From a virus (taxonomy: Duplodnaviria > Caudoviricetes), in IMG/VR virus record IMGVR_UViG_3300032038_000027, positions 32,001 to 96,000 of that record: a stretch of 64,000 bases of DNA; one strand, 5' to 3'. Numbering within the stretch: position 1 is the first letter of the stretch; the number at the start of each line of letters is the position of its first letter. Positions 1 through 36,417 of this stretch are shown one piece after another. The position numbers were made by a program, and so were the translations under genes. Below the pieces are notes generated by a model that was not told the origin of the DNA, did no database searches, and saw only the letters and a program-made list of their open reading frames with translations.

Positions 1-2
1 AA

Positions 3-3000
3 TTAAGAAACATGAATAATACCGGCAATCGTTCGCGCAGTACGCTCAATAGTATTGCGGATGGTTTCAGAAATGTTGATATGCAAGCAGGAGCAGCAGG
101 GCTTAAAACCCAGACATTTATGGATAAGCTGCGCACATCGTTTGGTACTGTATCGAGATATATTAGTGCGTCTACGGTGTTATATGCAGTTTTTCGCTCC
201 ATAAGAAATGGCATTTCGAATGTAGTGGAATTAGATACAGCTTTAGTTGATCTAAAGAAAACTACGGATGCTACAGAAAGTCAGTTAGAGAGTTTTTATT
301 ATTCTTCTAATGATATAGCAAAACAATTAGGCGTAACGACTAAGGAAGTCATAAGCGCCGCCGCCGAATGGTCGCGTTTAGGATTAACAAGAATAGTCCC
401 CCTATATGGTGACATATAGGTAAACTTCCTGCTCAAATCGGTGAAACTCCTGAGAAGGACAATACCGAGGGTAAGATTAAAATACTATCAGAAAATTATA
501 AGTAAAGGTGGTGAATAAATGAAAAGAAAAGATTATACAAACCAAAGATTTGGAAGATTAACAGTAGTTGAAATGTTGTATGGTTATAGAAACAAACAAA
601 CATACGCAAGATGTATATGTGATTGTGGTCAAGAAACGATTGCTTATATAGGCAATATAGTAAAAGGTGCAACGGCATCTTGTGGGTGTTGGGAAGAACA
701 ATCAAGGTATAATAGAAAAAATCACGAAAAAGACATTTGCGGAAAAAGATTTGGTCATTTATTGGTTATAAAGAAAACAGATAAAAGATATTTAAATAAA
801 AGTGTTGGGTGGCTATGCAAATGTGATTGTGGGAATGAAATTATTGTTCGTTCTGGAAGTTTATTAAGAGGAAAAACACGTTCTTGTGGTTGTAATAGAA
901 GAAGTAAATATGAAGAATTTGTTGAAGCATATTTAAAATTGGCTAATATTGATTATGATTGCGAACATAGATTTCCAGATTGCAAAAATCATTTTATGCT
1001 TCCTTTTGACTTTTATTTACCAAATCACAATGGCAAGAATTATTGTATAGAGGTGCAAGGGCAACATCACTACGAGCCAATTAAAGGATGGCGTGGAGAA
1101 GAAGGGTTTAGAGATATACAGCGTAATGATTCAATTAAAAGAGATTATTGCAAAAATAATAATATTATTTTAATTGAATTGCCATATACTCTCAAAGAAT
1201 CCGAAGTTATACATAAATTAGATAGTATTTTAAATCCCGTAACGATCACAGCAGCATAAGTAATTATGTTGCGTATGCAGGACATCTTAAAAAGATGAAG
1301 GTATGATCTGCTCTGCAAATATAATCAATTAAATATGAAATTGCAGAGGTAGGCAGAAATGACCTACCCCTTTTCTTTATGAAAAGAGCAACAAAAGGAT
1401 TCGATCAAAGATGCGGAAACTATGGCTAAAACGTCGTCAATATTCTCGTCTATTTCTCCGGGCTTAGATATTGAACAGGCGACAGACGGGCTTGTTTCGG
1501 CTATGAAGGCAAATCTAAATGCCTTGTTGTATAGAAATATGCAACTTGTTTACATTTAACGGCAGGTAAAACCTAAAGCCTTGCACCACAATAATCGGAA
1601 AACCAGATTATGACGGTACGAAAGTAGAAAAAACGCAAGGATGGCATAAGGTCAAAAGCCTAAGTGTTTATACAATGGTAGTTCATGCCGCCAAGCACCC
1701 TAACGTTATACATAGATCATATGTTATTAGTCGAGGGTGAAGGTTCAACGACTATTCCGATAATGGTCGTAGGCTTTGTTAATAAGGGTGGAAATCCCGA
1801 ATATCTACGACAATAGAAGTACGGCGCAATCGCAAATGGCGTGGGTGAAATTCCCTTAAATGGAAAAGGTGTACTCTCATTTTTTGAGATGAAGAAATAG
1901 TCTATTCTCATGTGAAAGCATGAGTGAATTATTGTGATTATTATAATTCAGCCATATCTTGCGAATATGGTAAATAATAAGATTTGATATTGAAGCAAAT
2001 GATGCTTTGGATGGTATCGCCAGTAAGATAAATTCGATTGGCAACAGCCAAGCCGTCAGTAACGAAGATATTGTAGAATTTTTAACAAGATCATCGTCCG
2101 CTATGAAAGAAGCGAACAATAGTCTTGAAGAAACAATAGCGCTTGGCACGGCGGCGACAGAGATCACAAGGGACGCCGCATCCGTCGGACAAGCCCTGAA
2201 AACAGAACTTTGTTTTTGTGTATAGAAATATGCACATAGCACATATTTAATGGCAGGTAAAACCTAAAGCCTTACACCACAATAATCGAGAAATCAGATT
2301 ATGAAGGCACGAAAGTAGAAACAACGTAAGGATAGCGCAAGGTCAAAAGCCTAAACGCTGTTATAATGGTAGTTCTGCCGCGAAGCACCCTAACGTCAAA
2401 CATAGATCATATGTTATTAGTCGAGGGTGAACGTTCAACGACTATTCCGAATAGGGTTACAGACAAGAGAATAAGGGTGGAAATCCCGAATATCTGTAAC
2501 AAAAGAAGTACGGCGCAAATTTAGGCGTGGGTGAAAACCCCTTAAATGGAAAAGGTATGACTGCTATCTTTTAGATGTGGTTAAGAAATAGTCTACTCTC
2601 ATGCGAAAGTATGAGTATCAAGGAATTTCAATGCGTATTAGAGGTAAAATCATCGTTGCCTCCATATTCAGTAATGAATATGCGGTGTACGCTTAAACAC
2701 TGATGATAACTATATCGGTTAAAAGACGGAAGCGTTTTAGACCGAGGGAAGGTTGCGCGTTTACATCGGAAAGGATGTAAATGAAACATAGAAAATATAC
2801 ATTTGAAAGTATTAGCCAAATTCTTAAAGAATATGGCTTTATTTTATTGGATTTTATCTCAACAACAGAATTAATATCAAAAGATAAAGAAGGATATATG
2901 TATAAACTCAATTTGGTCAATTTAAAAAATGGTAAAAAGCCCAATAAATATATGTTAAATCCTTTTGCTTTGGATAATTTTAAACTTTATTTACAAAATA

Positions 3001-6000
3001 ATTATCCACATTATCATTTGTTAGATGATAAATATATTAATAGTAAAACTAAAATGAAATTTATTTGTGATTTACATATAGAAAAAGGCATACAAGAAAA
3101 CTACGTTAGTAACATTGTGCATAATCATCATGCTTGTTTATATTGCGGTTGTAAAGAATTATGGGATAAGAAAAGAACAACGATAGAGCAAATGCAAAAT
3201 GAATGTAGTAGAGTAGGAGTAGAATTTGTTGAAAGAACTTCAAAGAATAATGAATGTTGGGTTAATTATATTTGCCCAAATCATAGAGAAGTTGGCGTTC
3301 AATCTACTTCATGGACACATTTTAAAGAAATTCGTAATGGATGTCCTTTATGCAATAAAATAAGCAAAGGTGAAGATGAAATTTATTTATATTTATCAGA
3401 AAGAGAAATTGATTTTATAAAAGAATATCGGTTTGATGATTGTAAATATAAACGAAGATTACCTTTTGATTATTATTTGCCGCAATATAATATGGTTATT
3501 GAGTACAATGGCAAACAACATTATGAACCCGTAAAGATTTTTGGCGGTAAAGAAAATTACGAAAAAACAGTGTTAAGAGATAAAATAAAACAAGATTACT
3601 GTAAAGATAACAATATTAAAATGATAATAATTCCATATTGGGAGTATAAGAATATAAAAACCATTTTAGATAATGAAATTGGATGTAAAGCGCAAAACCC
3701 GTAACGACTGCGGGAGGTGTTTGGTAACAAACATCTTGAAGTTATCCCCCATTATTAATGGGTGAATATACAGTCTGGACTCACGCAATAACTTAATTAT
3801 GAAACGTGAGAGTAAGGTTTAACGACCTTGCCGCCATTATTTAATGGTCAGTAGCCTATCGGTTGGTGAAAGTAACAGAATCGTATGATGAAGAAACCGA
3901 ACAATTCACTGGTGATGTGGAAATTCTTTCGGGTAAAATCGCTGATTTAACGAAAACGGCTGATAATCCGGGCGGCGTTTCATTATTCACTGATGATTCA
4001 AAAGAAACGTTTAAATCAACAACGCAATTACTCAGAGATATTTCTGAGATTTATGATGAACTTACAGATAAGCAACAAGCCGAATTATTAGAGAAACTTG
4101 CCTCTAAAAGGCAGGGACAGATAGTTGCGGCAATCCTCAACAATTTTGATGCCGTAGAATCCTCACTTAAAACGATGGAAAATTCAGCGGGTAATGCCGA
4201 AGCTGAAATGTCGGTTATTATGGATTCTATGGAATATAAGATCAATAAATTAAAAGAAACAGGCACAGGTGTATTTCAAAATTTATTTAAAACTGAAGAT
4301 ATGGGAAATATCGTCGAGTTATTAACCGATGTATTGAATGTAGTGGATTTCTTAACTAATAAGGTTGGCTTATTAGGAACTGCTATGATTGCCGTTCCCA
4401 TAGTTTCTTTTATTAAAAATTTTGGAGAATTAAAACTTTTAGGTATACAAGGTTCAACAAGCATAACTGCCGTTTCTGCTGCAATTAAAGGTTTGACCAT
4501 AGATGAAGCGGCGGCGGCATTAGCTACTACTAATTTATCTGAGGCTGAAATAGCCGCTGTTCTTGTAAAGAACGGATTTACAAGTGCTACGGCATTAGAA
4601 ACAGCTGCAAATATAGTTGATGCAAGAACGAAAGAAGCAGCGGCGGCATCAACTATGGGTTTAGCGGGTGCTGAAACTACTGCTACTGCTACTACTTCTG
4701 GTTTGGCGGGTGCAACAGGAGGACTAACAGCTGCATTTAATGGTTTGAAAGCAGCGATTGTAAGTAACCCCATTGGATTCATAGCTACTGTTGCTGTTGC
4801 AGCATTTGTGACTATTAATACTATAATCAATAGTATTGAAAGTGCTTCTGAAAAACTTGAAAATAGTTCTGAAAAAGTTGCTGATGCAAAAAGTGAATTA
4901 GATGGATTAAATTCAGAATTATCTACGACTCAAAAAAGAATTATAGAATTAAATCAATTAGATTCACTTACACTTGTGCAAAAAAATGAACTGCGCGATT
5001 TAAAGAAAACTAATGCAGAGCTAAAACAAAAAATAGCTTTGCAAAAGCAATTACTATTAACTGAGCAAAAGGCGAATGAAGATAATTTTGTAAAAGCAGT
5101 AAATTCAAAAACTAATTCTTCTGAAAATTCAGAAAATTTCAAATGGTATTATCCTTTATTGCAAAATATACCACTGGTTAGTTTGTTTAATGAAGATGTT
5201 CGAAAATGGAAATATTCAGATCATACAAATAATCAACAGAGATTTGATAATTATGTAGAAAATTATTCTAAAGCAGATGATGATAAACTCACAAAAGATG
5301 TTTTTGGCAATACTATTGAAAGTAAAAAAGCCATGAGCGAATTTATGGGTAAATATATTCAAGAATTATCTGACTATGTAGAACAATTAGGCGATTATGA
5401 TTATAAGTCATTATCTGATGAAGCGAAAAAATCAGTAGACCTTTATTATGATAATTTAAATAAATTTAGTGTAATAATGGGCGAATACTCTGATGCTTGG
5501 AATGGTGTTTATAATCAACAGAGATTTGATTCGGCTCGCGAAAAAATAGAAGAAGTATCTAAAGATGGCTTAACAGGCGATGAACTTTCCGATTTATATA
5601 ATAATAATTCCGATGTAAAAGCTATGATAGACAACATGAAGGAAGTCGGTTTAATTAGCGGAAATGTTGAGGATAATTTTGCGGGAATTGCTTTAAATAT
5701 TTCAAAAGCTGATAAAAATATTGATTCTTTTTCTAATAATGAAAAGATTAGTTTTTCTGATTTAATGAAAAATGAATCTTTTACAGATCAGGTAGATGAT
5801 TATAAAGATAAACTCACTGAACTTGACGAAGCATTAGAAAAACTGCGTGACGGTACTTTAAGCGAAGAAGATAAAACTGATTTATTTATGGATTTCCCTG
5901 AATTGGCAGGGCAAGCTGATAATCTTGATGAAGCAATTACTAATTTAATAAGCGATACTGAAAATAATGCTATTGATTATTTCGACAAAAAGGTAGGAAA

Positions 6001-8962
6001 TATGGATACGGAAGAATCCGTAAATGCCTTAAATAATCTCAAAAATAGCATTTTGGGTCTATCAAACGCCACGGGACATAGTTCTGAGGTTGAAGAATAT
6101 CGCGATATTTTAAATCATTTAGAAACTAAGGAATCTTGTGATAATATTGATGAACTTACCGAAAAAATGAAATCATATGCTGACGAGTATAATAGACTTG
6201 TTGGTTATGGTAAAAAAGGTAATGTTGATTATAATAAAAGACCTGTTGTTTCAAAAGATGATGTAAAGGAGAAATATCCTGATTTTGATGGTGATTATGC
6301 TACTACATACGATCAAGGTTATGAAATTACGGATTCGAGCGGCAAGAATTATGCGGTTGTCGTAACACCCATTTTAGAAAATGGTAAAATTTTATCTCAG
6401 GAAGAATTAGATAAATATATTGATGATGTTTTAGAAGGTTCGGACGATGTATTAGAGGCAGATACTAAAAATCTAATAATTCATGCGGAGGCTGAAGGTG
6501 AAGGAGATTATTGGATTAAAAACGATGATGGCAGTCTTGAATTTGATTTTGAAAGTTTTAACGAGCAGTTAATTCCTGCAAAAGAGGGACATTTAGAAGC
6601 CTATCTTGATATTAATACCAATATGGACGATCTTATTCCTTATGCGGATAAATTAGGAATCTCTGTTGAACAGTTGAAATCAATAGGTGATATTCCCGCC
6701 GATCTATTTGCATCTGCTGATGAAGTAACCGATAAAATATCAAAACTCACATCGGAAATAGATGGTTTATCTGACACATATTCTGATATGATATCTATTA
6801 TAGAAGATTATAATGATAATGGTTATCTTACTCTTGATAATTTACAATCTATAATGGATATGGAACCGGAATATATTAATTTACTTATTGATGAAAATGG
6901 GCAAATTAATCTTAATAGTCAAGCATATAAGGACTATGTAGCATCTAAAGCAAAATCATTATTGGTTAATGAACTGCAAGATTTATATAATTCTATTCTT
7001 GGTATGCAAGTGGAAGAGGCACAGGCTTATGCGAACGCACAAGCATATGATGAAGAAACAGAAAGTGTGCAAAGTCTGCTTAATGCTACCACTAAATTAT
7101 ATTATGCCAAAGCTATGGCGAAAGATTCCGCTAATAATACTACTGCTTATACGGATGCTTTATCTCAGTCATTTAATACGGCGGCGAATTATGCTGCTAT
7201 GGTAGATAGTTATATTAGTAGTTTATCTACGCCTTTAAATGAATTTGATGTTGCCACAGAAGAAGCTACCGATTCTACTGACGAAATGACCTCGGCATTA
7301 GAAGCGGAAAAAGATGCTCTCGAATCCCAAAAAGATGCTTTGGAGGATAGTAAAGATTCTTTAGAGGATTATAAAGATTCAATAACTGATGCACAATCTG
7401 ATATTCAAAGTTTAATTGATCTTGTAACCGATTATATTAAGCAAACTAAAGAGGATGAAAAATCTGCTATACAAGACAGCATTGATGCTTTAGAAGATAA
7501 GAAAACTTCGTTGGATGAACAGAAAGATGCTTATTCTGAACTGATTGATAAACGCAAGGAAGAAATTGAGGCTTTATATGAAGAAAAGAAAGCCCAAGAT
7601 GAATTATCAGAAAAGCAAAAATCTGTCGCCAAAGATGCACTTGCATTAGCTGTTGCACAACTTGATGATAGTTCAGCCGGAAGAAAAGCGCAAAAGCAAG
7701 CACAAGATAATTTAAATACCAGTAATAAAGACCTAAAAGATTATCTTGATGAACAAGAAAAAGATAAACGTATTGAGGCTCTCGAAAACGATGAAACTGA
7801 ATACGAAGAAATGATTGAGAAACGTAAAGCTGCTATTGATGAACAAGTTGAATATTACGAATCTAAGATTGATGAAATAGACGCTTATCTTGATAATTCT
7901 CGTCAAATGTATGAAGATGCTTGCGCTATGATTGATAATGATACGGGCGAATTATATAGTAAATTATGGAATGAATATGTATATCCATATACTACACAAA
8001 CTCGCGCGGAATTCGATCATTTGTGGAGTAGCGCACAAGAAGCAATTCAAAAATACATTGGGGACAATGGAACATTAATTGGTACTATGGAATGGCTGCA
8101 AACTGAGATTTATACTACAGAATCGCAGATCGCAGAACTTGATAGCCAAATTGGAATTTTGGATGATTCGATAGATGATATTGATGAATCTATTAATAGC
8201 GTCAGTAGTTCAGTAGATACACAAAAAGATAAAGTAGGCGAACTTGGTAAGTCGTGGTCAAGTGCTACTTCCGATGTATCTAAATATATTGATGAATTAA
8301 ATAAGATACCAGATAGTGTTCCTGCTGTTAACAATACATCAAATCAAAATGATATTGAGATACCTTCGGATGCAAAATGGTATTTTGATTATTATAAAAA
8401 CGGGAAATTACATCGAGCTTGGTCTAAATCGAGAGATTATAATGTTGCCGTACAAGATATTATGAGGGAAATCCAAAAAGAAACTGGACAATACCGATCA
8501 GATGTATATGGTGGCATAAAGAAACGATATGCAGTAGGAACGTATAGCTCTATTGGCGGCGTTGCTGTAACGCAAGAGAATAATCGACTCGAAGAAATTT
8601 TCGGTAAATTACAAAATGGTCAATACACTATGATGTCTGAGGGTTCTCATGTATTAACACCACAGGCGACTACTAATTTACATAAATTCGCAGATAATCC
8701 CCCTGAATTTGTCGCACAGGCATTAAGTTATAGCGGATATTTGGGTAGAATTGAAAATGCGGCAAGAAACGTTGTAAGAAACATTGATAATCGTTCAATG
8801 GGCAATACTGAGATTTCTGCGCCGATTCAAATAAGTATTCAAGGTGATGCTACTCAATCAACCGTTAATGCTTTAAGAGCGGAATCAAAGAATATTGAGG
8901 AATCTATCATTAAAAAATTAGTAAGGATTAGAGAAGGAAAAAGAGGAATTATGATTAAATAA
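3..8962 (+). CDS. Phage tail tape measure protein, 5'-partial, split by four group I introns: join(<3..384,1399..1510,1982..2203,2624..2645,3884..8962)
   Basis: Manual splicing restores a continuous TMP core: EWSRLG-Y-SIKDAETMAK...LVSAMK-A-FDIEANDALDG...GQALK-T-ISMRIRG-YDEETEQF. Exon phases add up. A long Ala-rich/coiled-coil C-terminal exon precedes Dit. Confidence 0.92.
385..1398 (+). ncRNA. Group I intron 1 of tape measure gene (HEG-containing)
   Basis: Exon ends in U384 and intron ends in G1398. P4 tcggt/accga; P7 gatca/tgatc; 13-bp P6 extension 477-489/1221-1233 around the HEG. Confidence 0.88.
519..1259 (+). CDS. Intron-encoded homing endonuclease (Cys-rich DNA-binding repeats plus Vsr/PD-(D/E)XK-like nuclease)
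   Basis: Two RFGxL..CxCDCG..SCGC repeats; C-terminal LPFDFYLP..IEVQGQHHY; lies inside intron 1. Confidence 0.8.
   Translation: MKRKDYTNQRFGRLTVVEMLYGYRNKQTYARCICDCGQETIAYIGNIVKGATASCGCWEEQSRYNRKNHEKDICGKRFGHLLVIKKTDKRYLNKSVGWLCKCDCGNEIIVRSGSLLRGKTRSCGCNRRSKYEEFVEAYLKLANIDYDCEHRFPDCKNHFMLPFDFYLPNHNGKNYCIEVQGQHHYEPIKGWRGEEGFRDIQRNDSIKRDYCKNNNIILIELPYTLKESEVIHKLDSILNPVTITAA
1511..1981 (+). ncRNA. Group I intron 2 of tape measure gene (ORF-less, 471 nt)
   Basis: P1 aaggc/gcctt; P7 elements caacgactatt / aagaaatagtct; ends in G1981; removal restores AMK-A-FDIE. Confidence 0.85.
2204..2623 (+). ncRNA. Group I intron 3 of tape measure gene (ORF-less, 420 nt, paralog of intron 2)
   Basis: P1 aaaac/gtttt; caacgactatt / aagaaatagtct; ends in G2623; removal restores ALK-T-ISMRIRG; long identical blocks shared with intron 2. 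Confidence 0.85.
2646..3883 (+). ncRNA. Group I intron 4 of tape measure gene (HEG-containing)
   Basis: P1 gaggU/Gcctc with U.G pair; P7 gactg/cagtc; ends in G3883; removal gives ISMRIRG-YDEETE. Confidence 0.88.
2781..3704 (+). CDS. Intron-encoded homing endonuclease (CxxH/CxxC repeats plus Vsr/PD-(D/E)XK-like nuclease)
   Basis: SKGEDEI...RLPFDYYLP..VIEYNGKQHY...D..K..YC; lies inside intron 4. Confidence 0.8.
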   Translation: MKHRKYTFESISQILKEYGFILLDFISTTELISKDKEGYMYKLNLVNLKNGKKPNKYMLNPFALDNFKLYLQNNYPHYHLLDDKYINSKTKMKFICDLHIEKGIQENYVSNIVHNHHACLYCGCKELWDKKRTTIEQMQNECSRVGVEFVERTSKNNECWVNYICPNHREVGVQSTSWTHFKEIRNGCPLCNKISKGEDEIYLYLSEREIDFIKEYRFDDCKYKRRLPFDYYLPQYNMVIEYNGKQHYEPVKIFGGKENYEKTVLRDKIKQDYCKDNNIKMIIIPYWEYKNIKTILDNEIGCKAQNP

Positions 8963-31279: not shown

Positions 31280-31354
31280 TGGAGGCGACGAACGGATTTG
31301 AACCGATGAATCAGGCTTTTGCAGAGCCGTGCCTTACCACTTGGCTACGTCGCC
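31280..31354 (-). tRNA. tRNA-Cys(GCA)
   Basis: GGCGACG/CGTCGCC acceptor stem, U73, encoded CCA, CTGCAAA anticodon loop, TTCAAAT T-loop. Confidence 0.93.
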
Positions 31355-33258: not shown

Positions 33259-35834
33259 TTATCCTTTTAAATGTTTTACTCTATCTTCGGTTTCTGCTCT
33301 TTTGCCCGGATTAAATGCTTCAATGTAATCACCAGTTAGATATCCTGTTACTCGGCGCAATCTGCGAATTTCTGTACATCCACATTTGGGGCAAGCATCT
33401 TTAATTTCATCCGTCCAACCGCAGTTTTTGCACATATCATTAGGTACATTTGCCGCCGCATAAGGAATATCCTTATCCATCGCATAGTTAATAATGGTTT
33501 CAACTGCTTTAGGATTATCTTTTACACGAGCATTTAATTCAACATAAGTAATACAACCTGCACTTGAATAACCAGTTAATTGAGATTCAATATCAATTTT
33601 TTCGAAAGGAGTCATTTCTTTCCAAACAGGAACATGAATTGAATTAGTAAAATATTCACGATCAGAAACATTTGGAATAACGCCATATTTTTCTTTAAAC
33701 TTCTTCATGGCTGTATAGCAAAGATTTTCAGCAGGAGTATAATACACACCAAAGTTTAGTTTATATTTAGTTTTAAATTCAGCGCAGCGATCTTTGAATA
33801 ATTGCTCAATTTTTTTCGCAAGTTCCATGCCTCTTTCTTCGGTATGATCGCAACCGATAAGAATTTGAAGAGCTTCTGCAAGACCGAGCTGACCTACTGC
33901 AAGCGTACCATGCTTTAATGCAGATCGAATATCTTTACCATCATAGCCCTCCATTAAACCGTTTTCATACATGAACTTTGCGGCATCTGCGGGCTGAGAA
34001 CAAATATATTCAAATCTTTCAATAAGCATATCTTTCGCTTCGTGGATTTTTGCATCGAGCATATTTAAGAATACAGTAGGAATATCATCGTCATAATTTG
34101 AATCATATGATTCTTTCGCCATCATAGCGATTGTCGGTAAAATAATTGTTACGGGGCAGATATTTCCACGACCATCTTTTAATTGACCGAAGCCGTTAAT
34201 ATCATACCCATTAGCTGTTCTACACGTTTAAACCCTCTGTCACCAGAGGAACTGACTATATCTTCTATCTTTCGATAGCCTTCCGCTTCGGATGCGTGCC
34301 TATCTCGCATCCTACTCCCTTACATTCATCAGGGATAGTCGATACACTTTTAATTTAGCATAGATATTTTAATACTATTCTAAATCACTTAGCACGGTTT
34401 CAACTTATTAACTAAGTCCTGACCGTTAGCCCGTTTTATCGGACACCTTCGGGCGAAGTTCAAAAGGTTTTAGATGAGCTGTAGTTTACGCTTACCCATC
34501 GTTGAGAAATATGTTTTAGGGTCATTTCTGTCATATCCCTTATTACCAGACCAATCTACATTAGCGTAGTTCGGATATAATCTTAATGATGTTGATCTGA
34601 TTGCTAACTGGAATAAATCGTAATTTGGTTCGCCCTCTTTACGATTCACGCCGCGCATTAATTGAAAAATACCGCACGGGAAAATAGAGGTTTTATGTAG
34701 CTTGCCGATACCTTTAATCGAGGTTTCGAGTAGGCAACGAATAATCAGTCTACCTTCGGGAGAAGTGCAAGTACCGTAGTTGATTGAGGTGAATGGCAAC
34801 TGGTTTCCTGACCTGCTTTGAAGTGTATTTAAATTGTGATACATTCCCTCAACAGCTTGTTTGGTTTCAATAATTGTGTCATATAAAGCACTTTGCGCGT
34901 ATTTCTTGTTTAAATCAGTATTACCGAGATGATAATCATCTTCGGTTGTATTAGTTGCGGCGAAAAATTCGTCCTTATGGGAATCTACCCAATCATCAAA
35001 TCTGTTTCTCCAAACAATATTGCCATCAACGATTTCTTTGTAATCATCGAAAACCATATTAATGAGATCAAGTTCGACAAACTCAGGACGATCTTTTAGC
35101 CATGCGGCGATATAATGCTTTAGGAAACTTTTCTTAACATACGGCACCATTGTCCAATCTAAGTGTGTAGCGGAAACGCCGCCAAATTGCTGAAGGCTCT
35201 GTAATTGGAAAATCACAGCTACTAATTGAAAAGCTGTGCCTACAGATTGTGCGGGTCGAACATCTGTTTGTCTTGTGTTAAATCCATTTGCTAATAATTT
35301 ATCAAAAGGAATAGACAAGCAGTTATGATCTCCGACAGAATAATGGTCTAAATCATGAACGTAAATCATATTATTCACATGATTGATATAAGACATTTTA
35401 GACATTCGATTATTTAGTGCATCGTCTTTCATGGTTACACTTAGCGCAGCGCCCATTCTGCCGCCAAATGAATGTTCATCAACATTTGCGTTCTGATTCT
35501 TAACATTCTTCGCAAAGAGTTTTTCTTCCACTTCTTTCGAAAGTTTACTCTTTTGTTGTCTTGCGCGTGTTCTGTCGTTACGATAGATAATGTATGCTTT
35601 TGCGACATCTTTGCGAGAACTCTGCATGAGCTGCTTTTCGATAAGGTCTTGGATTTCTTCTACATTCATTTGTGGCTTATCAAGATTTGTAATGGATTGA
35701 GCAATATTCTCACAAATCTTTTCGGACGTTTCATCAAAATAGCCATCAATTTCGATGAAAGCCTTTTTCATGGCGTTGAGAATTTTCTGAACATTAAACT
35801 CTACAACACGACCATCACGTTTAATTACTTTCAT
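33259..35834 (-). CDS. nrdD: Class III ribonucleotide reductase, intron-split: complement(join(33259..34224,34494..35834))
   Basis: ATP-cone MKVIKRDG; HDLD..NC; splicing restores STMG-CRT; C-terminal CxxC..CxxC and RRVTGYL glycyl motif. Confidence 0.95.
34225..34493 (-). ncRNA. Group I intron in nrdD (269 nt, ORF-less)
   Basis: P1 gatgggU/Gctcatc; R gtatcgacta, S aagatatagtc; terminal G before TGT (Cys). Confidence 0.92.
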
Positions 35835-36417
35835 TAGATACCTCCATATTGTGTGTTTCACCATTTAAGGCGTGATTGTATATTAGACTAACAACTTCTT
35901 CGGGCGAAAGTTTGTATCTATCATTTTCAATAACGTAATTAACTTCACGCTCAAATCCGGCAAACTGCCCTTCATCAGATGTGCAACGGCGATACGCTTC
36001 TTCAATATCGTCGCCACGTTCTAACATTTTAATTAGTCGAGAACGTCGATCTACATTAAGATAAACGATAACCATATCAGTATGGTAATATTTATTGTAT
36101 GTTTTAAACGCCCTAACGCCAGTAGGATTAAGAACTACAACTTGATTTAGCATTGGGTTCATATCAATTTTTGTGCCATATTGCCAATTCTTATATGTAA
36201 CAAATTCAAAGAACTCATTATTATCTTTCATTCGGTTGAATTGCTCGTCCGTTACAAAGTGATAGTCAACACAATCTTGCTCATTTTCTCTTGGCTTTCT
36301 TGTAGTGTATGTGATAACTTGTTTTATATCATTACGATTATCATCGTTAATCATTTTGGCGCAAGTAGATTTACCACTCGCACTTGCACCTGCTAAAATC
36401 AATATCATTCGTTCCAT
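35821..36417 (-). CDS. gmk: Guanylate kinase
   Basis: GASASGKST, TTRKPR.NE...DYHF, YGT. Confidence 0.9.
   Translation of the reverse strand: MERMILILAGASASGKSTCAKMINDDNRNDIKQVITYTTRKPRENEQDCVDYHFVTDEQFNRMKDNNEFFEFVTYKNWQYGTKIDMNPMLNQVVVLNPTGVRAFKTYNKYYHTDMVIVYLNVDRRSRLIKMLERGDDIEEAYRRCTSDEGQFAGFEREVNYVIENDRYKLSPEEVVSLIYNHALNGETHNMEVSNESN

Follow-up and report, generated by a model that had tools for sequence, protein, structure and literature searches.

The 64,000-nucleotide (nt) window analysed here, bases 32001–96000 of the 115,743-bp IMG/VR record IMGVR_UViG_3300032038_000027 (Caudoviricetes), opens inside a tape-measure gene whose conserved core is broken up by four insertions, which we interpret as group I introns. 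The record is an uncultivated genome estimated to be 74% complete, with a G+C content of 34%, and the public reads closest to it were obtained from gut metagenomes of cattle and other animals; it represents a roughly 116-kb phage of the bovine gut. The list of open reading frames (ORFs) holds a 1699-amino-acid (aa) frame from position 3863 and only fragments before it, as the sequence-only reading of this DNA had noticed, and the unspliced tape-measure frame reaches a stop codon at 417–419. Exon 1 opens at an ATG at genome position 31046 (window −954), preceded by AAAGGAGG, and is 1339 nt long, with 1–384 lying in the window. When 3–384, 1399–1510, 1982–2203, 2624–2645, and 3884–8962 are joined, an open frame with one terminal stop results, and the spliced product is 2257 aa long. 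The segments removed are intron 1 (385–1398), intron 2 (1511–1981), intron 3 (2204–2623), and intron 4 (2646–3883), all on the plus strand, and together they share 356 nt of internal exon. The in-frame join and the colinearity with homologues confirmed the intron coordinates read from the sequence alone as exact, and with them the internal exons of 112, 222, and 22 nt, the last being a microexon.

All five plus-strand exons could be placed on tape-measure proteins of relatives. Exon 1 (in-window part 1–384, start at window −954) aligns to intron-less tape-measure proteins up to WSRLG. Exon 2 (1399–1510, 112 nt) encodes YSIKDAETMAKTSSIFSSISPGLDIEQATDGLVSAMKA and is colinear with relatives, as is exon 3 (1982–2203, 222 nt), which matches the PhageMin_Tail domain PF10145. 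Exon 3 alone gave an E-value of 5.7e-7 over profile positions 68–139, its 30 bits falling under the cut-off of 33.2 because the domain is split by introns. The microexon, exon 4 (2624–2645, 22 nt), supplies the rest of a Thr codon that starts in exon 3 and goes on to encode ISMRIRG, and exon 5 (3884–8962, 5079 nt including the stop) continues in phase with exon 4 and is colinear with relatives from YDEETEQF onward.

In tblastn comparisons, the joined product aligned without gaps over all four junctions both to the tape measure of Brevibacillus phage Sundance (E 3e-70; annotated as tail length tape measure protein) and to the intron-less MT837120.1 (E 9e-67). Nine of the 16 IMG/VR relatives compared first were uninterrupted over the whole core, with 59–73% aa identity, and the junction peptides WSRLGYSIKD, SAMKAFDIEA, and ALKTISMRIRGYDEETE are identical, letter for letter, in these nine relatives and in the spliced window. 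The last intron base is G in all four introns (G1398, G1981, G2623, and G3883) and likewise in every relative examined, and the 5′ exons end in U384 (exon 1), C1510 (exon 2), C2203 (exon 3), and U2645 (exon 4). This agreement of boundaries, frame, and junction peptides is not by chance, and the claim that a full-length tape-measure protein requires all four removals is supported. An independent DNA contig (2530–2861) spans intron 3, exon 4, and intron 4 with one mismatch. A blastn search with the intron sequences gave no further copy of the elements within the 115.7-kb genome, and megablast of window 1–4200 against GenBank phages gave no match. An intein or a separately translated split gene was ruled out, because the insertions do not keep the reading frame and the internal exons measure only 22–222 nt.

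RNA evidence was obtained for one of the junctions. A 234-nt contig from the metatranscriptome run X19 corresponds to 259–384 joined to 1399–1506 with 0 mismatches, which places the exon 1–exon 2 joint exactly at 384|1399 and is consistent with a spliced message, although DNA may also be present in RNA libraries. Intron-less alleles of relatives were also recovered at this joint in DNA runs, but with 8–9 mismatches. Of the spliced junctions anticipated by the sequence-only reading, the first is thus matched by a contig of a public RNA library, and the contigs of that library span none of the other three.

Introns 1 and 4 are group I introns of the IA type, each with an endonuclease ORF looped out of P6. 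In intron 1, a P1 of 6 bp (381–386/394–399) sets U384·G396 at the cleavage site. Its script-checked core consists of P2, P3 (428–432/1277–1281), P4 (438–442/464–468), P5, and P6, with the 13-bp P6a (477–489/1221–1233) closing the ORF, and continues with P7 (1244–1248/1304–1308), P8, P9–P9.2, and the terminal G1398. In intron 4, the 5-bp P1 (2641–2645/2658–2662) sets U2645·G2658 at the cleavage site, so that both introns have the U·G wobble within an exon-guide P1. The likewise script-checked core of intron 4 comprises P2, P2.1, P3 (2705–2710/3741–3746), P4 (2715–2719/2741–2745), P6 (2746–2748/3698–3700), P7 (3706–3710/3771–3775), P7.1 with a GUAA loop, P8, P9–P9.2, and the terminal G3883.

The block AUCGGUnAAA...ACCGAGG (P4-P5-P4′) and the element CCGUAACGAnnn (J6/7-P7) are common to introns 1 and 4. 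An IMG/VR scan with the P4-P5-P4′ block recovered more than 118 loci, at least 54 of which also carry the J6/7-P7 element, located either 15–60 nt downstream (ORF-less members) or 1–1.8 kb downstream (ORF in P6). Across the family, P7 was read as GACTG/CAGTC (23), GACTA/TAGTC (11), GAGTA/TACTC (3), or GATCA/TGATC (2), with GAUCA/UGAUC in intron 1 and GACUG/CAGUC in intron 4. P7 covaries in these four versions over more than 40 loci, each version behind a conserved J8/7, and P5 and P6 covary too. The ORF-less homologue of intron 1 at locus L108 aligns to the ORF-deleted intron 1 and scored 60.6 bits with the Rfam group I model RF00028, above its gathering score of 50 bits. In gut-metagenome DNA contigs the same intron 1 has an 8–10 nt hairpin replacing 479–1231, and therefore the endonuclease gene of intron 1 sits in the P6 loop. 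Introns 1 and 4 are members of one large phage IA-type family; its P4-P5 is short, P7.1 lies between P7 and P3′, and the splice sites have the U·G pair and a terminal G. Another intron of this family occurs at L010 (5660–6967) between the SVG and NALKT codons, five codons ahead of site 3, where its Vsr-like endonuclease gene is frameshifted (ORFs 5774–6517 and 6499–6786).

Both endonuclease genes are encoded on the plus strand. Endonuclease gene 1 (519–1259, 246 aa) matches PHROG 559/9084/7140 (E 8e-41 to 5e-21), and endonuclease gene 2 (2781–3704, 307 aa) matches PHROG 559 (E 3.7e-49) and has a Vsr-like (EDxHD-type) domain behind Cys-rich repeats; the matched families comprise homing and intron-encoded nucleases. 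The two proteins are 35% identical. The last codons of endonuclease gene 1 encode P6a, J6/7, and P7 of intron 1, which its 3′ end overlaps, and a 246-aa homologue lies within the site-1 intron of L143. DNA-level matches of endonuclease gene 2 include genes annotated as "homing endonuclease EDxHD", "group I intron-associated VSR homing endonuclease", and "intron-encoded protein B" of Twort. Searches of Pfam and NCBIfam gave no match for either ORF, and neither phmmer nor a four-sequence profile gave a relevant match against PDB sequences, including 3R3P.

An AlphaFold model of endonuclease 2 from a single sequence was unusable (pLDDT, predicted local distance difference test, 37.5) and was replaced by one built from a 47-sequence alignment (pLDDT 91). 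Foldseek returned 1cw0_A and 1vsr (Vsr) as well as 3r3p_A/B, all with a probability of 1.00 and weak E-values of 0.016–0.07. Superposed on 3r3p_A, the catalytic domain of I-Bth0305I, the model gave a template modelling score by target of 0.74 and a root-mean-square deviation of 2.9 over 107 columns. A Vsr endonuclease fold is therefore present in the endonuclease 2 model. Residues E198, D230, E241, H247, and D267 are invariant in the alignment of 47 homologues and are candidates for the composite catalytic motif E, D, x, H, D, to which D196, H213, and D222 of I-Bth0305I are the reference. The N-terminal halves of both endonucleases consist of Cys-rich repeats, and homologues carry PF14311 and PF05265. 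The expectation that two introns with homing endonuclease genes flank two ORF-less ones was borne out by the PHROG matches and by the Vsr fold of endonuclease 2. Directly before the AUG of endonuclease 2, a hairpin (UUACAUC-GGAAAG-GAUGUAA, window 2761–2783) encloses the likely ribosome-binding site; such a hairpin could couple translation of endonuclease 2 to intron folding.

Introns 2 and 3 are ORF-less group I introns and paralogues of each other, being 82.7% identical over 404 nt. With RF00028, intron 2 scored 38.0 bits (E 2.9e-7) and intron 3 scored 34.4 bits (E 3.3e-6), both below the gathering score and both aligned end to end, over 1501–1924 and 2212–2615, respectively. At an E-value limit of 0.01, RF00028 detected none of the introns of L143, L139, and L142, and the sub-threshold scores are therefore attributable to the sensitivity limit of the model. 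P1 was located at 1506–1511/1520–1525 in intron 2 and at 2199–2204/2211–2216 in intron 3; P10 of intron 2 has 4 bp (1982–1985/1517–1520), and that of the family member in L016 has 6 bp. An alignment of eight sequences of the intron 2/3 family folds to a group I core with 95 pairs, 56 of them with compensatory double changes. A P3–P8 core with a P3/P7 pseudoknot supported by covariation was found in both intron families. Intron 3 and the site-3 intron of L005/L006 share 84% identity. In L005, a 315-aa endonuclease ORF comes after the 420-nt core, and a terminal hairpin comes after the ORF; intron 2 has retained this hairpin and intron 3 has lost it. On these sequence comparisons, introns 2 and 3 most likely derive from introns with an endonuclease gene, which they have lost by deletion, and persist through splicing. 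Four group I introns are supported overall by the helix sets, the covariation, and the RF00028 matches (introns 2 and 3 directly, and L108).

The cleavage site of the intron 2/3 family differs from that of introns 1 and 4. At each of its four sites, and in all eight members, the family follows the pattern exon ...C|A... intron ...G|A... exon, and in the window the pairs at the 5′ splice sites are C1510–G1521 (intron 2) and C2203–G2212 (intron 3). The cleavage-site C pairs with a G of a site-specific guide (UGCCUU, UGUUUU, UGUCUUU, UGCCUG, or UGUCC), and the neighbouring U pairs with an intron A in P1 or with an exon A in P10. Shifting the splice register so that a U precedes introns 2 and 3 never recovers the conserved peptide, and the sole equivalent register (+1) ends both exon and intron in A; therefore C–G appears to replace U·G in this lineage. 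The U·G cleavage-site pair has been described as critical and near-universal (PMC2504315; PMC4227781), and the predicted C–G pair is the most unusual feature of the present case. A literature search on natural C–G cleavage-site pairs found only statements of near-universal U·G, and published exceptions remain conceivable.

The distribution of the introns was compared in 26 relatives; close homologues of endonuclease 2 gave access to seven tape-measure loci beyond the 16 IMG/VR relatives compared first. The same gene contains from zero to at least six introns in these relatives, and the gene core has at least nine insertion sites. Members of the intron 2/3 family occur at site 3 (L005, L006, and L003), near residue 314–316 (L016 and L003), and near residue 325 (L018–L020); at site 2 the family is present in the window only and in none of the relatives. 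L005 and L006 have the intron-3 type alone, with its own endonuclease gene, and the intron-3 type stands without intron 4 in L005, L006, and L003. Conversely, L139–141 and L142 have intron 4 alone, at the identical site. Intron 4 is 83% identical to that of L139–141, compared with 69% nucleotide identity for the flanking exons, and the corresponding values for L142 are 72% and 57%; homologues at the same site span L139–145, with 72–83% nucleotide identity for the introns and 57–69% for the flanking exons. Intron 4 thus shares its exact site with four further tape-measure lineages, and that it is more alike than its host exons matches what horizontal homing predicts.

The types of introns 1, 3, and 4 are all present in L143–145 (1990–8110), and intron 2 is absent. 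The order there is an intron-1 homologue (site 1), an ORF-less intron (IG|NSQ), an L010-type intron (SVG|N), a 14-nt microexon (AACGCTTTAAAGAC), an intron of the intron-3 type (site 3), the same 22-nt microexon as in the window, an intron-4 homologue (site 4), and an intron of the intron 2/3 type (site 5). These genes therefore contain six group I-type introns plus one uncharacterised insertion of ~840 nt after KNFG, and the window is not the extreme case, with six or seven insertions in L143–145. Insertions of 0.8–1.2 kb after the KNFG codons were seen in L139 (~6650–7640), L142 (~6710–7910), and L143 (7238–~8110), and they hold a minus-strand ORF of 107–164 aa that has no PHROG match.

Several observations weigh against four functional group I introns. 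At gathering thresholds, Rfam reported a tRNA only and no group I intron in the whole window, and E-value scans limited to intron 1 and to intron 4 gave no RF00028 match. The group I model check proposed by the sequence-only reading was thus answered for introns 2 and 3, below threshold, and for the intron 1/4 family only through L108, the ORF-less homologue of intron 1; the ORFs of 0.75–0.93 kb in introns 1 and 4 interrupt the model. The X19 contig could also derive from DNA of an intron-less variant, and no RNA contig covers junctions 2, 3, and 4 or the intron bodies, in a sparsely covered RNA run in which gaps are uninformative. Moreover, introns 2 and 3 lack the U·G wobble at the cleavage site, though P1 is present, and this could mean poor or assisted splicing. 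It is possible, though unlikely, that introns 2 and 3 are crippled by the C–G pair and the loss of their endonuclease, and that their splicing is helper-dependent or inefficient, with output throttled or exons skipped as in Twort orf142. The standing of U·G in the literature (PMC2504315; PMC4227781), the sub-threshold RF00028 scores, and RNA support that reaches junction 1 only would all fit such a situation. However, none of the eight family members, spread over four independent sites, departs from C(−1)–G, their guide changes in step with each site, P10 is in register, the last intron base is always G, and the phages carrying these introns require an intact tape-measure protein; the conservation of the C–G rule across sites argues for function and against decay. 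Far less probable still is a pseudogene broken by mobile insertions, or an assembly chimera, with no splicing at all. The uncultivated, incomplete (74%) state of the contig speaks for it, but each removal restores both frame and residue identity, the independent contig 2530–2861 spans intron 3, exon 4, and intron 4 with its single mismatch, homologous introns occupy the same sites in other assemblies, and the blastn search of the genome showed no second copy of the elements.

The sequence-only reading had further suggested that the ORF-less middle introns spread by co-conversion and that the whole cluster could be mobile as a unit, with the flanking endonucleases cutting intron-less alleles and repair carrying the middle introns along. 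The co-conversion tracts of phage intron homing, known from work on T4 td and sunY, are typically far longer than 112–222 bp, and the spacings of 112, 222, and 22 bp here lie far below them; in L143–145, moreover, introns 3 and 4 are found together with 22 nt between them. Nevertheless, intron 4 occurs without intron 3 (L139–142) and the intron-3 type without intron 4 (L005, L006, and L003), L143–145 lack intron 2, the site-2 intron is found in no relative, and members of the intron 2/3 family in relatives carry an endonuclease gene of their own. The presence/absence pattern, comprising intron 4 alone, the intron-3 type alone, or introns 1, 3, and 4 without 2, thus went against the proposal, and the four introns assort independently. 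Sliding-window exon identity showed no peak around the shared introns and no co-conversion footprint, in a comparison for which the relatives are too diverged. A single mobile unit is therefore improbable, slightly more so than crippled middle introns, and the suggestion is left unsupported. Short-range co-conversion of neighbouring introns is mechanistically likely, and the occurrence of the intron 2/3 family at four sites with apparently retargeted guides points to transposition between sites, beyond hitch-hiking.

Taken together, the locus is very probably best explained by four group I introns, two with Vsr-like endonuclease genes and two that are ORF-less C–G paralogues. The exon structure, the RNA-fold homology with its covariation, the endonuclease fold, the independent assortment, and one joint in an RNA library form the established part of this explanation. 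The tape-measure gene would be transcribed with the four introns inside its most conserved core, and each intron would excise itself before the 2257-aa protein can be translated. The Vsr-like endonucleases of introns 1 and 4 may promote homing by cutting intron-less alleles close to where the intron inserts. Introns 2 and 3 would belong to a family that colonised at least four sites of the gene by changing its guide sequence. We lean, by a narrow margin, towards regarding the intron 2/3 lineage as a natural family with C–G in place of U·G that reaches new sites by rewriting its guide, and towards viewing the gene core, with the intron 1/4 family included, as an intron hot-spot that offers nine or more sites, in which one gene can hold up to six or seven introns and microexons measure 14–22 nt.

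Introns of the T4 td, nrdB, and nrdD (sunY) genes are similar to introns 1 and 4 in being IA-type, with an endonuclease ORF looped from a peripheral helix and an ORF end that overlaps the core. In T4 there is one intron per gene, and the endonuclease family differs from that of the present phage. The orf142 gene of Staphylococcus phage Twort is said, going by the title of a 1999 report by Landthaler and Shub, to contain three group I introns and to show exon skipping. In Bastillevirinae, polymerase and terminase genes have a maximum of three introns per gene (PMC11878797). As far as the accessible text of these sources goes, the Twort and Bastillevirinae genes resemble the present one in having several group I introns in a single phage gene, and differ from it in the host genes concerned and in a reported maximum of three introns per gene; that text yielded no mention of a microexon as short as 22 nt. 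The four introns of the window and the six or seven of L143 exceed three, the highest count per phage gene found in accessible papers.

The closest precedent is that of Bacillus cereus-group prophages, in which tape-measure genes have group I introns (TMP-IVS1, IVS2, and IVS3) at three sites, with at most two per gene (Tourasse and Kolsto 2008, PMC2504315). Like the introns described here, those are IA-type, lie in conserved tape-measure regions, and include ~80%-identical paralogues at different sites with retargeted P1/P10, some members being without a complete endonuclease gene (PMC2504315). In contrast to them, the present gene has four introns sharing 356 nt of exon, the clade as a whole has nine or more sites, one family has C–G at the cleavage site, and the endonucleases are Vsr-like. 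Group I introns in tape-measure genes are thus already published, and the present case is a denser example and no new element type. I-Bth0305I, an EDxHD homing endonuclease encoded in the recA intron of Bacillus phage 0305phi8-36, has been described as carrying NUMOD motifs (PMC3239194; PDB 3R3P). The endonucleases of the window share with it their location within an intron and a Vsr-like catalytic domain, as suggested by the superposition of the endonuclease 2 model on 3r3p and by its invariant acidic and His residues, but they show no sequence-level match to 3R3P and have Cys-rich N-terminal repeats in place of NUMOD motifs. The mitochondrial cox1 gene of Agaricus bisporus is likewise reported to be a conserved gene crowded with group I introns (PMC2987802), although in an organellar genome and with LAGLIDADG and GIY-YIG endonucleases, whereas the host here is a virus with a short infection cycle.

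Further candidates were noticed elsewhere in the genome. The gene for anaerobic ribonucleotide reductase (nrdD) is split into an ORF at 34470–35864, corresponding to positions 2–265 of PF13597, and an ORF at 33259–34125, corresponding to positions 299–562. The gap between them (34126–34469, minus strand) is a candidate ORF-less group I intron, with an RF00028 match at 34233–34572 (minus strand; 34.1 bits, E 2.5e-8), and the arrangement resembles that of nrdD in phage T4. Another RF00028 match lies outside the window at genome 4981–5252 (plus strand; window −27019 to −26748; locus L147; 36.2 bits, E 5.8e-9). With these two matches added to the four tape-measure introns, the phage therefore has at least six group I intron candidates. 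In another IMG/VR phage contig (L028, 1549–7878), nine RF00028 matches within 8.6 kb, four of them above the gathering score, are interleaved with HNH-type endonuclease ORFs. A tRNA gene was identified in the window at 31283–31354 (minus strand; 61 bits), and its anticodon loop, CUGCAAA, suggests a tRNA-Cys.

For the phage itself, the finding means that no virion tail would be made without four ribozyme reactions, of which three take place within 250 nt of message. The gene could serve as a compact natural system for studying how adjacent group I introns fold without mutual interference, whether exon skipping occurs across a 22-nt exon, and whether homing endonucleases compete or cooperate when their targets overlap neighbouring sites. 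For annotation, the lesson is that standard gene callers and Rfam thresholds fragment tape-measure genes of this kind. The range from zero to at least six introns in one gene, with the same families at different sites, provides a ready presence/absence matrix for intron gain, loss, and retargeting. The C–G family, if efficient in splicing, would test the accepted role of U·G in 5′ splice-site selection.

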